Positions 219 to 6,186 of a stretch of 64,000 nucleotides of DNA are shown here, piece by piece. The first letter of the stretch is position 1; every line of letters starts with the position of its first letter. The translations under genes and the position numbers were made by a program. Below the pieces are notes generated by a model. The model did not search any database. It was not told where the DNA came from and saw nothing but the letters and a program-made list of their open reading frames with translations. This DNA is from an uncultured Chloroflexia bacterium (GTDB lineage Bacteria; Chloroflexota; UBA6077; JACCZL01): assembly GCA_963765765.1 (NCBI GenBank), contig CAVXYC010000025.1, positions 32,001-96,000 of the forward strand. Reading direction: 5' to 3'.

Positions 219-524
219 CTAATGAGATGCTTCGACCTGGAAGTCGCCCGCGTCGGGATGTGGTTCGCACATGGCGCCGTCGGGGATCCGCTTGGCGCGG
301 CAGTGGAGAATATCGCCGGGCGCCGCTGAGCCGAGAAGGTCGCGTCGCACGCTGAATCCCATCGTCTCGCCCACGTGGGAAGAGAGCAGATCGGCACGAC
401 CTTCCACCGGCGCAGCGGCGTCGATTCGCACGTTCAGGAGGTCATAGTCGCCCAGCGAGGAGTGAGGCGCGCGCGCCAGGATCTCTCCGTCAATCCGCGT
501 GAGATTCTCGATAACCTGAACCAT
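219..524 (-). CDS. Small hypothetical protein (beta-rich, possibly OB-fold-like), last gene of the ATP-grasp cluster
   Basis: 101-aa ORF starting 10 bp after the ATP-grasp stop; protein-like composition. Confidence 0.65.
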   Translation of the reverse strand: MVQVIENLTRIDGEILARAPHSSLGDYDLLNVRIDAAAPVEGRADLLSSHVGETMGFSVRRDLLGSAAPGDILHCRAKRIPDGAMCEPHPDAGDFQVEASH

Positions 525-534
525 CGTACTGCCT

Positions 535-1449
535 TCAGGGCTTCTGCGTGCCGCTCGCGAGGAGCGTGATCAACGCTCGACTGATCGGCAAGCCGGTCTC
601 CCTCTCAAAGTAAGTATAGGCAGGCATGGGATTGACTTCGAAGCACACCCACTGACCCGAAGGACTGCGACGCAGGTCTATCCCGCAGAACGGGAGTCGC
701 AGCCGTTGACTGAGCAGCAGGCAACGATCGGACACATCGAGAGTCAAGTCGATGGGCGATAGATCAGCCGCGTTACCGTGATAATGCGCGTATCGGTAAT
801 CAGTCGCTTCGCTGGTGATAGCGCAGGCAAACACCTGTTTACCGATAACATGAACGCGGACATCTTCGCCCGATACCATCTGCTGGAGCTGGACTGGTAG
901 ATCTCGCAGCCGATCCAGGCGGGCAGCCTGCAATTCATCGAGCTCCGTGACGATCGATCGAACTCCACTGATCGACTTGAAGATAACCCGCTCGTGATCA
1001 CGCCAGAACGCCCGAGCCTCTTCGGGGCTGCTGGTCACAAGTGTCTCGGGTACATCGAATCCCGCTGCACCAATGAGCTGCGCTTGATACGGCTTGGACC
1101 CGTTAGAGTCCATGTCTGACGGGCGGTTGACCACCAGAGTCGGCGCCAGCTCGAGCCATTCGAGAAACAGCTCATGAAAAGTCTCAGAACGCGCGCGAGC
1201 CAGCGTATTCGCGTGGCTCCGCGGGATATCAAGCGGCCGAGCGTAGATTCCGGAGATCGCGTCGAGCTCAACGCTACGACCATCTATCGTAAGCACGCCC
1301 GTTGCGCCATGGTCCGTGACGCTTACGAGCAGGTCCGCGCGGTCCAGTGCGCATTGATCCAGCCAGATCAGATCCTGCTCCAGTTCGCGAGCGGTTTCAA
1401 TGGCCTTTTGCAGGGGCGGATCGTCGCCGCGGCCGTAGAACAGAATCAA
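535..1449 (-). CDS. ATP-grasp ligase, RimK / MvdD (graspetide synthetase)-like
   Basis: Motifs VVNRP..SKPYQ, VPETLVT, IFKSISG, LQQMV..DVRVHV, DYRY, GIDL, FEVNP and TGLPISRAL. Start placed at TTG (LILFYG); the ORF is open upstream to 1641. Confidence 0.9.
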   Translation of the reverse strand: MILFYGRGDDPPLQKAIETARELEQDLIWLDQCALDRADLLVSVTDHGATGVLTIDGRSVELDAISGIYARPLDIPRSHANTLARARSETFHELFLEWLELAPTLVVNRPSDMDSNGSKPYQAQLIGAAGFDVPETLVTSSPEEARAFWRDHERVIFKSISGVRSIVTELDELQAARLDRLRDLPVQLQQMVSGEDVRVHVIGKQVFACAITSEATDYRYAHYHGNAADLSPIDLTLDVSDRCLLLSQRLRLPFCGIDLRRSPSGQWVCFEVNPMPAYTYFERETGLPISRALITLLASGTQKP

Positions 1450-1640
1450 GAGCCGGGCACCTCGGAGGGGTGCCAGCCAGGTGTATGTAGTGATCGCTTC
1501 AGCGCTTTTTGGGCGATAACGAGAAGCGAGCGTGGCGATGCGACGGGCGACATCAGAAGCTGCCCGGTAGCAGCGAGCGGTCGCGGGGCGCATGCCCGTC
1601 TGCAATCTCGGAAAAAGTGCTGAAGCGCCCACTACGAGCA

Positions 1641-2525
1641 TCAGGGCGTCCGCATCTGAGCCGTGCGTGGGGAGGATGGCAATGGAACAGGCGTCTCTTT
1701 AACTGGCACGTGGACGCCGATCCCATTCCAGCCAGCGAGCAAATTCACCACTGCATCCACTGCCCAACTCTCCAGAAGCGGCGGCATCGCATCCACTGCA
1801 CGCACAACGAGACCCGCACTGGATTCGATGAATCGGATTTCGAGCAGGCGGCAGTCCGCCAGACGCGCTAGCGCCAGGCACGGGCCTTCGTAGCGGCCGG
1901 TGAGCGGCCCAACGGCGTGATCACCCGCGATCAGCACACTGCCTGCGCTACGACAGGACTCGTCGACTTGAAGCGCCGCGGGCGCGGGGCCCCGTACGCC
2001 GCCCGGCCATTGAAAACCATCGATGCGCTCGCCGCGTTCTGGTAATGAAAGCATGCGACCGGCGGTTGCGCGTGCGTTATGCGCAACCGGTAAGCCGACG
2101 CTCGCTGCGAGAGATAACCAGCCGCGTTCAGTGAGTGGTCCACGACATTGGCCGCGAGGGCCCGAAGGATTCACTACGCGGGGGCCGAAGCTGAAGAGCC
2201 AGCTCGCTACCAGCGCCTGTAGCTCTGCCCCCGCGTAGTCGCGATCTTTGGCCGTGGCTCGATGGAACCGAGGCACCGGCAAGTACTGCAGTCGATTGAA
2301 GACGCAGCTCACATTTTCCGATGAGACGACGGTTCCGTTAGGCAGCTTGATGTGCGTGCTCGCCTGCCCCGCGGCAGTGACTCGATGGGACCACGCGGCT
2401 AGTCCCAACGATTCGGGTCTGGCGAGAATCACCGACTCGCGGCCACTGTGCTCAGCAAGCCGAGAGGCCACGGCGCTGGCCCCGGCGTCGTGTCCATGGG
2501 CCAGCACCAGAACGGGTCTCGTCAC
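1641..2525 (-). CDS. Degenerate ATP-grasp-like protein (pre-ATP-grasp region retained, catalytic motifs absent)
   Basis: GTG start overlaps the reconstructed protease TGA (GTGA). Contains VFNRL...DRDYAGAELQALVASWL...VVNP...AASVGLPV but no KxxQ or ExN motif. Confidence 0.68.
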   Translation of the reverse strand: MTRPVLVLAHGHDAGASAVASRLAEHSGRESVILARPESLGLAAWSHRVTAAGQASTHIKLPNGTVVSSENVSCVFNRLQYLPVPRFHRATAKDRDYAGAELQALVASWLFSFGPRVVNPSGPRGQCRGPLTERGWLSLAASVGLPVAHNARATAGRMLSLPERGERIDGFQWPGGVRGPAPAALQVDESCRSAGSVLIAGDHAVGPLTGRYEGPCLALARLADCRLLEIRFIESSAGLVVRAVDAMPPLLESWAVDAVVNLLAGWNGIGVHVPVKETPVPLPSSPRTAQMRTP

Positions 2526-4457
2526 GAGCTCGGCGGGGTATCGTACTGACGCTTCGCGTCGCGATCGCCGGTCGGCGATGCGTTCCTGGATCGATTGATC
2601 GCCTCCGTCATAGTCGGGACCACCGGCCAGGTCGGGACGAAGACTGCTATCGATAAACGGCACTCCTGGGGCTCCCAGCCCTAACGCCTCTTCGAGGACT
2701 CGCACGCGCTCCTCGAGCGTGGCAAGTGGATCGGCTCCGCTGCCGTAGCCTGGATCCTGAAATTCACCAGGTCCGGGTTGATCGCTGGACCAGAAGAATC
2801 GCGGCCACTCGCGCGAGTCCTTCCGATCCTTGCTTTCCTTCCAGGGCTCCTTGGAGTCCTTGATGTTGTCTTTCCGATCTTTGGAATCCTTCGTATCTTT
2901 TGTGGCTTCTTTGCGGCTGTCCTTTTGATCCTTGGAATCCTTGGAGTCTTTGCTAGCCTCCTTGCGGCTGTCCTTTTGATCCTTGAGATCCTTCGCTTCT
3001 TTGTTGGGCTCCTTGGTGGCGTCTTTCTGATCCTTGGTGTCTTTGGCCACGGCCTTAGTGGTCACATTGACAGTGGCGGTCATCGTGGCGCCCGACGCGG
3101 AGATGTCAGTGACAGACACATTCGTGACTGCGCCAGCGTAGGAATTGGAGCTCGGTGTAGACGCGCCGGTGAGCGCGGTGACATTAGCGCTTCCCGGGAA
3201 TGGATCGCCTGCGTCGCCGCGATTGCGATCCAGCTCCAGATCGCGCTTTCCATCTGCCTGGACGAGCCCCACCTGGTAATGGTTCTCGTCAGTGTTGCCG
3301 GGCTGGTTTTCATCGATGTGCCAGATCAGCAGGCCGGCGGCTGGAAGCTGGGCGTCGTAGCCGGTTTTCTGACGATTCTCCATGAGGAAATACTCAGAGC
3401 CCGACCCGCCGTTGGTCCACAGTCGGTGCACGGCGTGGCTGTTTTTGACATCCGGGATGCTGATGATCCCATTCGAGGTCACATTTGACACGGTGGCCCA
3501 ACCCTGGTTCACCTTGCACCAGGCTGAAGGGTGCGCAGGAACGTCACCACCGCCATTCCAGGAGCCGCCGCCCATGAGGCACCAGTTTCCGACACCCTCC
3601 GAGGTGTAGTCAGTGTCGTAGAGGTCGGGGAAGCCGAACAGCAGATGACCCAGCTCATGCGCGCAGACGCCGATGCGCGAGTCTTCCGGCACAGTGAGAT
3701 AGGCGAAGATCTTCGTGCCATCCGCGTTGAACGAGCTGGGAAGCGTCCATTTATGCGACCAGATGTCGCCGGAGTTGCCGGTCTGCTCGCCGCCGCTCCC
3801 AGAATGGATCACGATGAAGGCATCAACGTACCCGTTGCCGTCGTTGTCGTACGGACCGAAGTTCACATCGGGGTTGGCTGCCACCGCGGCATCCTTGGCC
3901 ATGATATTCGCGCGCGGCGCGCCCGTGGGCTTGCCGATGCCGAAGTTGTTGTTGGCGTACCAGGCCAGCGTTTGAGGCAGTCGATACGGTCCCTTGACCT
4001 CCCCAACAATGTCCACCAGACCGCCAGTGACCTCTGCGAAGTACTCTTTCACGCTCCCGTGCGGTAACACGCCGTTAGAGAAGAAGAGATCGTTGAAATG
4101 CGCCGCGGTCTCTGTCATCGGTTTGTCCGAGTACTCGGCCAGTACCACGATGACACGCACCGCGCCGCGGAGCGGCGCGCGATCTAGAGCGGCGCGTCTG
4201 ATGACATTCTGGCTGGTGCCCGCGGGATACTCGTCTGGCGGGATGATCACTCCGTCATTAAAGCCCGGCCAACGGGGCTGGCGAGCCAGACCAAACGCCT
4301 GAGCCGATGCCGAGCGCGATCGCGCCCGCTCGAGCTGCGTTTTCATCTGCTGCTTCAGCTCCGGACTCGGAGCGACAGCGCAGAAGTCCGACCAAACCGC
4401 GATGGCCGGTCGGCCAGCTGAGCAGTGTTCTTCCGATGGATGTGAATTGCTCGCCAC
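2522..4457 (-). CDS. M6 family (immune inhibitor A-like) zinc metalloprotease with C-terminal K(D/E)x repeat tail; 1-bp frameshift near 2572
   Basis: HELGHLLFGFPDLY zincin motif, YDNDGNGYVD Ca-loop, IWSH, LMGGGSW, HPSAWCK, YFLMENRQ. GGGGAG RBS before GTG at 4457. The shifted frame ends GDRDAKRQYDTPPSS-stop. Confidence 0.92.
2808..3045 (-). repeat. Coding low-complexity repeat: about 23 K(D/E)x triplets with a 17-aa higher-order unit
   Basis: KDTKDQKDATKEPNKEAKDLKDQKDSRKEASKDSKDSKDQKDSRKEATKDTKDSKDRKDNIKDSKEPWKESKDRKDS. Confidence 0.95.
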
Positions 4458-4598
4458 AGTGATCTCCCCCGATGTCTCTGGCACGCGTCTCTGCGGGTCT
4501 ATCTCTTTTGTGGTCCGGAAAGGTTCATCCCGTGCATGCTACGCTGATGTTATTGCTGTGAAATCAGCCATTTGGGGGAGAATCCGCGGTGAATCTGA

Positions 4599-5096
4599 AT
4601 GAATCGCCCACAACGCATTGAGCCCGGTCCAGGGCAGGAATCCGTCTGGGATTACCCGCGTCCCCCGCGCGTGGAGCCGTCGGCGCGCCGAGTACGCATC
4701 GTCTTCAACGGTCGCGTCATCGTGGATTCGGTACGGGCGCTTCGAGTGCTAGAGACCAGCGGCCCACCCGTCTATTACGTACCGCTGGAGGACGTGGCAA
4801 TGGATCTGCTCGCGCCGTCAGGCCACCAAACCTTTTGCGAATGGAAGGGGCTGGCGGAACACTACTCGCTCCGAGTAAACGGGCGCGAAGCCGTCGATGC
4901 CGCCTGGAGCTACGCATCTCCAACGCGCGGATACGAGCAGATTGGTGGGTATCTCGCCTTCTATCCAGGCCGAGTGGATGAATGCGCACTGGACGGCGAG
5001 CCGGTGGTACCACAGCCTGGCAGCTACTACGGCGGCTGGATAACCCACGACATCGTCGGTCCGTTCAAAGGCGAGCCCGGTAGCGAGCGCTGGTAG
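4599..5096 (+). CDS. DUF427 domain protein
   Basis: ESVWDYPRPP, RVLETS.PP.YY, CEWKG.A, AAWSY, YGGWIT motifs. Confidence 0.9.
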   Translation: MNRPQRIEPGPGQESVWDYPRPPRVEPSARRVRIVFNGRVIVDSVRALRVLETSGPPVYYVPLEDVAMDLLAPSGHQTFCEWKGLAEHYSLRVNGREAVDAAWSYASPTRGYEQIGGYLAFYPGRVDECALDGEPVVPQPGSYYGGWITHDIVGPFKGEPGSERW

Positions 5097-5151
5097 TGTG
5101 AAGCACCCTGCGTCGTATCATGCCGAGCATCCTCGAACTGGAGCAGGCCCG

Positions 5152-6186
5152 ATGCACCGCTTCCGCTGTCAACCATTGAAGTTCGGACACGCAGCGCTTG
5201 GAGCGTTCATGTTGCTCATCGCATCGGTGGCGCCCACCTGGGCACAAGCCGAGGGCGGCCTGCCTGAGGTAAATGGATGGCGTGTTCTGGCACCCCTTCT
5301 TGCGCCAGTCTCCGAGCAGGCGGTTGTAGAGCTGGATGGCCGTATCTACGTCATTGGCGGGTATCCACCGGGCCGTGTTCCCGTGTCAAACGTCCAGATC
5401 TATGATTCGACCACAAATAGATGGCAGATGGGCCCGGCACTGCCAGTAGCAATGCACCACGCGATGGCGGCTGCTGCGGGCGGCCGCGTGTATGTCATTG
5501 GCGGGGAGTTTGAGGGCGCTGGCACCGGCCGGCCTGAGGTATACCTCGATACGGTCTATTCGCTCGACCCACAAGTAGGCGCGTGGGAGACGCATGCGCC
5601 CATGCCAACCGGCCGTAGCGCCGGAGGGGCCGCTGCGGTCGATGGAAAGATCTATGTCGCCGGTGGTCGTCCGCCTCGCGGTAACGATTTCGCGGTGTAC
5701 GACACGGCGACAGATACCTGGCAGGTGCTTCCCGATCTGCCGACGCAACGGAATCACCTGGCTGTGGGTGCCATGGATGGCAAGATCTACGTGGCTGGAG
5801 GCCGCTTCGGCGGCGGTTTCGGCAGCGAGCGCACGGCCACGCTGGAGATCTTCGATCCGTCCACGGCGGCCTGGATTAGCGGACCTTCCCTGCCAGGTCC
5901 ACGCGGCGGCGTGGCTGGCGTGGTGGCCAATGGCTGCCTCTTCGTCATAGGTGGCGAGGGTAATTACGCCGACCCACGCGGCTTGAACGACGAGAACGAG
6001 GCCTTCGACCCGAGAACGGGTGCCTGGATTGCGTTTGCGCCGATGCCCACGCCAACGCATGGTCTGGTGGGCGCTGCTTTCATCGGCGGCGATATTCACA
6101 TTCCCGGTGGCTCCGTCACTATTGGCGGCGGCACCGGCTCGGTGATCCACCAGGTCTACCGACCCTCGGGAGCCTGTGGGGCCTGA
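5152..6186 (+). CDS. Secreted Kelch-repeat beta-propeller protein
   Basis: Hydrophobic N-terminus ending TWA-QA; six repeats of G(R/K)IYVxGG...YD...W. Confidence 0.88.
   Translation: MHRFRCQPLKFGHAALGAFMLLIASVAPTWAQAEGGLPEVNGWRVLAPLLAPVSEQAVVELDGRIYVIGGYPPGRVPVSNVQIYDSTTNRWQMGPALPVAMHHAMAAAAGGRVYVIGGEFEGAGTGRPEVYLDTVYSLDPQVGAWETHAPMPTGRSAGGAAAVDGKIYVAGGRPPRGNDFAVYDTATDTWQVLPDLPTQRNHLAVGAMDGKIYVAGGRFGGGFGSERTATLEIFDPSTAAWISGPSLPGPRGGVAGVVANGCLFVIGGEGNYADPRGLNDENEAFDPRTGAWIAFAPMPTPTHGLVGAAFIGGDIHIPGGSVTIGGGTGSVIHQVYRPSGACGA

Follow-up and report, generated by a model that had tools for sequence, protein, structure and literature searches.

A four-gene cassette on the minus strand of a 64,000-nucleotide stretch of DNA from an uncultured Chloroflexia bacterium (assembly GCA_963765765.1, contig CAVXYC010000025.1; the whole stretch is called the window here, and coordinates are window positions unless another contig is named) encodes an M6 metalloprotease with a long C-terminal tail, a degenerate ATP-grasp paralogue that is predicted to be catalytically dead, an intact graspetide-type ATP-grasp ligase and a small protein of 101 residues. 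As shown by sequence comparison of related loci, the tail behaves as a portable module that is tied to the ligase pair and stands always directly upstream of it, whatever protein carries it. On this basis we lean, with modest confidence, towards a follower-directed, protein-scale graspetide reaction in which Lys-Asp/Glu isopeptide links would be made on the tail itself.

A portable tail upstream of the ligase pair

Related loci were gathered in two scans. The genome scan, which took one genome per species, turned up 289 ligase relatives; 80 loci were retained, and their neighbours were identified by phmmer at E<=1e-3. The metagenome scan used a dead paralogue of the non-M6 type as its query and yielded 249 relatives, again with 80 loci kept. 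In 76 of the 80 genome loci the gene next upstream of the ligase is the dead paralogue; an M6 homologue precedes the dead paralogue in 61 (E 1e-187 to 1e-222 among the 38 best listed) and the small protein lies downstream in 56, while at least seven of the loci without some of the parts are cut by contig ends. No conserved neighbours beyond the cassette were found around the genome loci. At the metagenome loci, which are of the non-M6 type, the ligase follows the dead paralogue in 72 of 80, an upstream open reading frame (ORF) is present in 74 and the small protein is present in none.

What the upstream proteins have in common is the way they end. The motif F-I-x4-R-P occurs in the last 150 residues of 69 of the 72 upstream ORFs at the genome loci, the three misses being frameshifted ORFs, and in only 8 other ORFs among 9031. 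A 40-residue stretch with at least 50% Lys, Asp and Glu is likewise found in 63 of these 72 ORFs, compared with 66 of 4950 among all ORFs of at least 100 residues. At the metagenome loci the motif is present in 67 of 74 upstream ORFs by a looser pattern without a measured background, and most of the other seven are near-misses by eye. An earlier note on this DNA, made from the window's letters alone, had tied the ligase to neighbours with Lys/Asp/Glu-rich tails, and homologous ligases are indeed almost always preceded by a protein of this kind; a strict cut on composition is passed at 63 of the 72 genome loci with an upstream ORF and at 38 of the 74 such metagenome loci.

The carriers of the tail are unrelated to one another. 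At 11 genome loci the ORF before the dead paralogue is not an M6 protease and bears the same type of tail; these carriers are Kelch proteins, an S8 subtilase, a cyanobacterial protein of about 260 residues and a 486-residue protein without a known family. A genome from the same order as the window genome (G028) has the same type of tail on a DUF6519 protein, with Baseplate_J genes upstream; DUF6519 has been described as the baseplate-anchor domain of the tail fibres of extracellular contractile injection systems (PMC12923769). The metagenome carriers include DUF6519 proteins with Ig-like, LamG, TIG and CBM domains, Kelch proteins, S53-like and C1 peptidases, lysyl oxidase and proteins of 100-200 residues. 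When the 85 non-M6 upstream ORFs were typed by phmmer to typed examples, DUF6519 proteins were found 28 times, Kelch proteins and the cyanobacterial type of about 260 residues 10 times each, a family of about 204 residues without known function 9 times, S8/S53 peptidases 3 times, and lysyl oxidase and C1 once each, leaving 23 untyped.

The type of carrier goes with the ligase tree: it changes 22 times along it, against a mean of 70 after shuffling, and none of 200 shuffles reached so low a count. Moreover, a profile of the M6 tail matches strongly only once, at the protease of the cassette, in the window's own genome and in three of five other genomes, and the two in which it misses are genomes carrying non-M6 tails. 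Because unrelated carriers share the tail, and share it always directly upstream of the pair, the tail can be described as a portable module tied to the ligase; and since there is one match per genome and the carrier tracks the ligase tree, there is one ligase pair for each cis-encoded tail. Such a one-to-one relation is to be expected of a precursor with its enzyme and not of a sorting system with many substrates.

The hosts belong to Actinomycetota, Pseudomonadota, Cyanobacteriota, Gemmatimonadota, Acidobacteriota, Nitrospirota, Chloroflexota and other phyla. The cassette looks mobile, judging from a ligase tree that mixes phyla (Mycobacterium, for instance, stands beside Gemmatimonadales) and from nine genomes of the window organism's own family in which a search with the window query found no cassette ligase. 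The family is also large: a search of 1.84 billion cluster representatives (clusters at 50% identity) gives 2821 members of the dead paralogue's family at E<=1e-3, and the ten relatives that were looked up are unnamed or called 'hypothetical protein'.

Tail architecture, proposed reaction and rival readings

Tails of the M6 type follow a common plan: an array of K[DE]x triplets, a Gly-rich stretch, an amphipathic helix-like segment, the motif F-I-x4-R-P-D-L and a conserved end. In the window the array occupies residues 476-561 of the protease (2802..3059, minus strand; 24 Lys and 24 Asp plus Glu). It is followed by about 90 further residues on the same strand, which comprise a Gly/Pro stretch, the family-conserved segment LATLEERVRVLEEAL (2682..2726, identified in the tail alignment and probably helical given its heptad-like pattern), PFIDSSLRPDL (2628..2660), which is the family motif and the proposed docking, or follower, element, and the conserved end. 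The earlier description of a protease ending in a Lys/Asp/Glu tail is therefore right about the array and not about the end: the array is not the terminus of the protein and, as assembled, the protease has no end at all, its ORF continuing into the degenerate ATP-grasp. The F, I, R, P, D and L columns of the motif are invariant in 25 aligned M6 tails, and an acidic residue adjoins R-P in both branches of the family, as RPD in M6 tails and as ERP in the others.

The 58 M6-type arrays hold 1074 Lys and 1127 Asp plus Glu, a ratio near 1:1, and the acidic residues are strongly ordered with respect to the lysines. An Asp or Glu stands at K+1 in a fraction of 0.88 (0.27 in shuffled arrays), at K+2 in 0.02 (0.27), at K+3 in 0.05 (0.26), at K+4 in 0.54 (0.26), at K+5 in 0.41 (0.26) and at K+8 in 0.51 (0.25); for the window array the values are 0.96 at K+1 (0.28 shuffled), 0.62 at K+4 and 0.38 at K+5. 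From these offsets it follows that the array consists of ordered K[DE] units every three to four residues, a spacing that contains a Lys-to-acid distance of +4.

The enzyme that would act on this array is the intact ligase (535..1449, minus strand). Its best NCBIfam model is TIGR04187 (128.5 bits, cut-off 350), followed by the MvdD and MvdC models TIGR04184 (73.6 against 475) and TIGR04185 (68.6 against 425), and it also falls below the cut-off of the RimK model TIGR00768 (66.3 against 143.4). A profile of the ligase compared with structures in the PDB finds PsnB (7drm, 3.7e-39), the MvdD-like pre-ATP-grasp protein 9bou (4e-26) and MdnC (7e-26), then MdnB, CdnC and AMdnB, with RimK proteins following at about 1e-12. 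The earlier note had proposed placing the ligase against PsnB, MvdC/MvdD and RimK, and by this profile comparison the macrocyclases are the nearest; judged in this way, the ligase belongs with the graspetide macrocyclases, having an ATP-grasp fold and an MvdD-type pre-ATP-grasp N-domain, and not with RimK. The same-order genome G028 additionally has a second, more distant ligase paralogue (L009, contig C466, 3844-4800; 30% identity, E 8e-23).

The degenerate ATP-grasp that the earlier note saw beside the intact one is confirmed as a truncated paralogue (1641..2525, minus strand). A profile of 29 homologues aligns with the ligase family over its whole length (hhalign probability 95.8, E 7.7e-9), the ligase's nucleotide-binding middle having no counterpart in it, and the invariant E335 and N337 of the ligase align to positions that are not conserved; we take this E-x-N pair to be the Mg ligands of ATP-grasp enzymes. 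BLASTP of the dead domain against the ligase is not significant, and the homology is visible only by profile comparison. Neither Pfam nor NCBIfam has a match for the dead paralogue or for the small protein.

Taken together, we envisage that the helix-like segment and the motif would form a C-terminal recognition sequence, or follower, analogous to the leader motifs of graspetides, and that this follower would dock the tail on the pair of ligase and dead ligase. The ligase could then activate Asp and Glu side chains with ATP and join them to the Lys side chains of the array, so that isopeptide (lactam) links would form in series, either inside a single chain or from chain to chain in an oligomer; the carrier protein itself would then be the precursor, a protein-scale graspetide. 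The elements of such a reaction have precedents. In corallotide biosynthesis a TIGR04187-type ligase is described as closing isopeptide rings between K(i) and D(i+4) within the five KxxxD repeats that a precursor of 22 kDa carries (PMC13097080), and MyxF as forming tandem (KxxE)n lactams in a pathway in which one ligase is inactive alone and needs partner ligases (PMC12848669). A graspetide leader is reported to remain functional when it is moved to the C-terminus behind the core, its key recognition element being RPFG (PMC13003496), and a leader motif of the type Phhx(1,2)h, or PFFARFL, is described as contacting the ligase (PMC8939145). PFIG and PFID of the M6 tails fit the description Phhx(1,2)h, with the difference that they are placed after the array.

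That the tail is the substrate of the ligase had been suggested in the earlier note: its association with the ligase holds across the loci, and the tail is a likely substrate. The companion idea, that a precursor has been fused to the protease that processes it, loses support, because many carriers of the same tail are not proteases (Kelch proteins, tail fibres, lysyl oxidase and 100-residue proteins among them). No adjacent short precursor with an N-terminal leader and a core was found in the cassette, whose genes abut or overlap and in which ORFs of less than 50 residues were not searched systematically; its only small conserved ORF is the domain-like protein of 101 residues, which is absent from the non-M6 branch.

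Several observations weigh against the proposed reaction. The Lys/Asp/Glu array is not universal, since only 38 of 74 metagenome tails pass a 30-residue composition cut and some tails (G028, L111, L117 and L119) have few lysines; with an array that is poorly developed or absent in part of the tails, the universal element is the motif and not the array. The ligase itself scores far too low for every named family of graspetide ligases, as judged by their curated cut-offs. Finally, no natural follower-type graspetide was met among the titles and opening lines of abstracts of those papers listed that name both graspetides and followers. The universality of the motif would also suit a reading, which we consider unlikely, in which the motif or the C-terminal end is the reactive site and the array a charged spacer: an Asp or Glu of the tail would be joined to a Lys of another protein or structure, such as a contractile-injection particle, in a pupylation-like manner, or amino acids would be added as by RimK. 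The acidic residue beside R-P in both branches (RPD and ERP) is consistent with this idea, as are the DUF6519 carriers, described as contractile-injection tail fibres (PMC12923769), the Baseplate_J genes upstream in G028 and the presence of the Pvc16_N marker in 12 of 16 cassette genomes. However, only F, I, R and P are invariant across the branches and the position of the acid differs, which suits binding better than chemistry, and the ligase is nearer to the macrocyclases than to RimK. The marker already has a base rate of 45 of 120 genomes in the order of one cassette-bearing Mycobacterium genome (6 of 120 in the order of Tahibacter), so that its co-occurrence is weak and was rejected as evidence tying the M6 branch to contractile injection, and the DUF6519 fibre of the window's own genome has no such tail.

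Two further readings leave the tail out of the chemistry altogether. Makarova et al. (2022), who saw no precursor at loci of this type, proposed that the peptidases cut proteins encoded elsewhere and that the ligase modifies the resulting peptides (PMC8939145); the intact active site and the very strong conservation of the M6 domain (the E-values among the 38 best homologues, 1e-187 to 1e-222, are given above) fit a working peptidase, but many carriers are not peptidases at all (Kelch proteins, DUF6519 tail fibres, lysyl oxidase, 100-residue proteins), and the proposal leaves it unexplained that unrelated carriers end in one common C-terminal module and that this module tracks the ligase tree. 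This account, in which the tail is not a substrate, appears improbable to us. We give equally little credence to the tail as a non-covalent docking or regulatory module that holds the ligase pair near the protease, or to the 101-residue protein as the true precursor. The small protein is conserved, with an invariant Asn in an N-terminal ENLT motif, yet it is missing from all 80 non-M6 metagenome loci, which keep the tail and the ligase pair, it is fused to the C-terminus of the ligase in some genomes, it resembles a folded OB-type domain (a lead only), and it has no repeat or leader-like motif. Isopeptide formation on the array, directed by the follower, is the reading that we carry forward.

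The earlier note presented the locus as a candidate new system, which overstates the case, as the type has been published as branch 8 of the ATP-grasp ligases, described as combining peptidases that belong to several unrelated families with an ATP-grasp that is truncated and inactive and with an uncharacterised cyanobacterial protein, no precursor being detectable (Makarova 2022, Biol Direct 17:7, PMC8939145). The likeness to the cassette lies in a graspetide-like ATP-grasp beside a truncated inactive one, in unrelated peptidase families (M6, S8, S53-like and C1 here) and in the lack of a separate precursor; the cyanobacterial protein of branch 8 occupies the same position as the carrier of about 260 residues. 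The match is one of description and not of tree placement. The two accounts part over the substrate, which the published description takes to be encoded elsewhere, whereas the carriers of the cassette, non-peptidases and tail fibres included, have in common a C-terminal module, the likely substrate. We thus regard the cassette as a variant of graspetide-type biosynthesis; the core of the earlier interpretation is supported, a wholly new system is not.

Among characterized pathways, corallotide (CorA/CorB, graspetide group 15; PMC13097080) resembles the cassette in its TIGR04187-type ligase, its large precursor of 22 kDa and its Lys-Asp rings in KxxxD repeats, and the K[DE]x triplets contain the same type of Lys-to-Asp/Glu +4 spacing. 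As that pathway is described, CorA is a dedicated precursor and not an enzyme, a dead paralogue and an F-I-x4-R-P tail form no part of it, the partners are a hydroxylase and a beta-lactamase, and its occurrence is given as Corallococcus only (PMC13097080). Myxomiditide (MyxF/MyxD1/MyxD2) shares tandem (KxxE)n lactams and a ligase that is inactive on its own and needs partners; unlike the cassette, it is described with a short microviridin-type peptide, an N-terminal leader and four ligases that are all full-length (PMC12848669). In the fuscimiditide system (ThfA/ThfB) the ligase can be guided by a recognition sequence after the core, in which RPFG resembles PFIG of the M6 tails, and ThfB is reported to cyclise and cross-link whole proteins, but the C-terminal leader is described as engineered and not natural, and the links are esters (PMC13003496). 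Graspetide group 32 (Carter et al. 2026, PMC13097080) has diverse neighbouring protease families, a likeness by description only. A literature search on graspetides together with metalloproteases and ATP-grasp enzymes returned nothing relevant, and one on contractile injection found no paper joining it with ATP-grasp.

New here are the diagnosis of a frameshift in the protease gene (below), the locus counts and the prominence of contractile-injection tail fibres among the non-M6 carriers. An ATP-grasp branch that was left without a substrate in its published description (PMC8939145) now has a candidate encoded in cis, namely the tail at the C-terminus of the adjacent carrier. If the reaction proposed here takes place, the cassette would be a graspetide system with a natural follower, whose targets are full-size enzymes and the tail fibres of contractile injection systems, and it would offer a ready-made pair of tag and ligase for protein stapling or cross-linking. 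More speculatively, and as no more than a tentative suggestion from the sequence comparisons, the tail and the ligase pair could be a general device that staples or cross-links whole proteins by Lys-Asp/Glu isopeptide bonds through a natural C-terminal follower, also on the distal ends of contractile-injection tail fibres. Such a device might lock oligomers or build a protease-resistant stalk, and it would make graspetide chemistry a system of protein maturation and not only a pathway to peptide natural products.

Gene models and the broken protease frame

As assembled, the minus strand carries three ORFs, of 947 residues (1641-4484), 368 residues (535-1641) and 101 residues (219-524), in which the co-oriented run of M6 protease, degenerate ATP-grasp, intact ATP-grasp and small protein announced by the earlier note is present with all four members in place. 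The protease gene extends over 2522..4484, its frame being broken by an extra base at 2572 so that the ORF reads on into the next gene. Its catalytic domain (residues 113-389; 3318..4148, minus strand) exceeds the cut-offs of both family models, TIGR03296 with 249.7 bits against 110.8 and PF05547 with 85.1 against 22, and the zinc-binding motif HELGH (3645..3659, minus strand) is present, in keeping with the intact HExxH noted before. The region of about 300 residues that follows the tail in the 947-residue ORF has no Pfam or NCBIfam match. By eye, the N-termini of the window protein and of one homologue (L010), the two that were inspected, have no hydrophobic stretch; the M6 enzymes InhA and PrtV are secreted and have a signal peptide. 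The M6 protease of the cassette is probably cytoplasmic.

The extra base joins the protease and the degenerate ATP-grasp into a single ORF with no protease stop. Frame +1 retains the C-terminus of the family (GD..AK...D...PP type; 2522..2569, minus strand), readable in that frame only, and then a TGA stop, which shares bases with the GTG start codon of the next gene (GTGA). We compared the frame with contigs from four soil-metagenome runs, which covered the stretch patchily, the best run containing a fraction of 0.27 of its words; among the data sets listed as sharing such words, none was of RNA. The sole informative contig (401 nucleotides, depth 3.55, from run X3 and hence from another sample) spans 2526-2927, is 97.5% identical with 10 other letters changed, and is one base shorter at 2572, which restores the normal protease frame. 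A close relative thus has the normal frame, a fact that says nothing on whether the window genome holds an error or a mutation; either a mistake in assembly or a mutation of recent date could account for the extra base. In most loci, protease homologues are separate ORFs of 598-852 residues.

From these comparisons we read the 947-residue fusion ORF as the result of a single-base insertion and not as a native design. A real and functional fusion of protease and pseudoligase in the window organism would be consistent with the uninterrupted ORF of the assembled sequence, and the extra base is contradicted by only the one low-depth contig (3.55) from another sample; even so, such a product is very unlikely, given that frame +1 keeps an intact family C-terminus, its stop and the GTGA overlap, that the best 150 of the 2821 relatives of the dead paralogue are all standalone proteins (211-335 residues), and that the same assembly has a second gene, for a DUF6519 protein on contig C26, apparently split over two frames. 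Frame breaks inside the protease tail or at the junction with the next gene also occur at three loci in other assemblies (L019, L067 and L077). The tail, being of low complexity and rich in GC, may be prone to indels or assembly errors.

For the ligase, the gene model 535-1449 of the earlier note is to be preferred over the 368-residue ORF, because the homologues start at the corresponding TTG: the codon at 1449 is preceded by GAGG, and all 14 of 14 aligned homologues begin there, at residue 65 of the longer ORF. About 190 bases (1450-1640) separate this TTG from the conserved end of the dead paralogue. This stretch lengthens both ORFs in the window, one by about 30 residues and the other by 64; the homologues lack it, and in them the genes of the dead paralogue and the ligase abut.

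Accessory protein and surroundings

The small protein (219..524, minus strand) is conserved, with homologues of about 404 residues in which it is fused to the C-terminus of the ligase. Structural look-alikes of such a fused homologue are ComEC DUF4131 and the anticodon-binding domain of LysRS (TM 0.59-0.69), so that the accessory protein is possibly a folded OB-type domain, which we offer as a lead only. A PADLOC search for defence systems gave no match for any of the four cassette proteins.

The genes that flank the cassette in the window were considered as further parts of it and rejected, as they are not conserved as its neighbours elsewhere. The next gene after the small one, on the minus strand and just below window position 270, encodes a protein with Gmad2 and LysM domains (L007 11599-12270), and its longest ORF overlaps the end of the small gene. 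Upstream of the cassette and divergent from it (4599-6186) are genes for a DUF427 protein and a five-blade Kelch protein; the latter has a hydrophobic N-terminus and no Lys/Asp/Glu tail, unlike the Kelch carriers at other loci.

Elsewhere in the same genome, the DUF6519 fibre gene mentioned above (about C26:20114-23345) is split over two overlapping frames, has no Lys/Asp/Glu tail and is followed by no ligase. It lies on a contig whose first 24,000 positions (C26, 1-24000; L173 and L174) hold a cluster of the contractile-injection type, with Pvc16_N at C26:974-1495.

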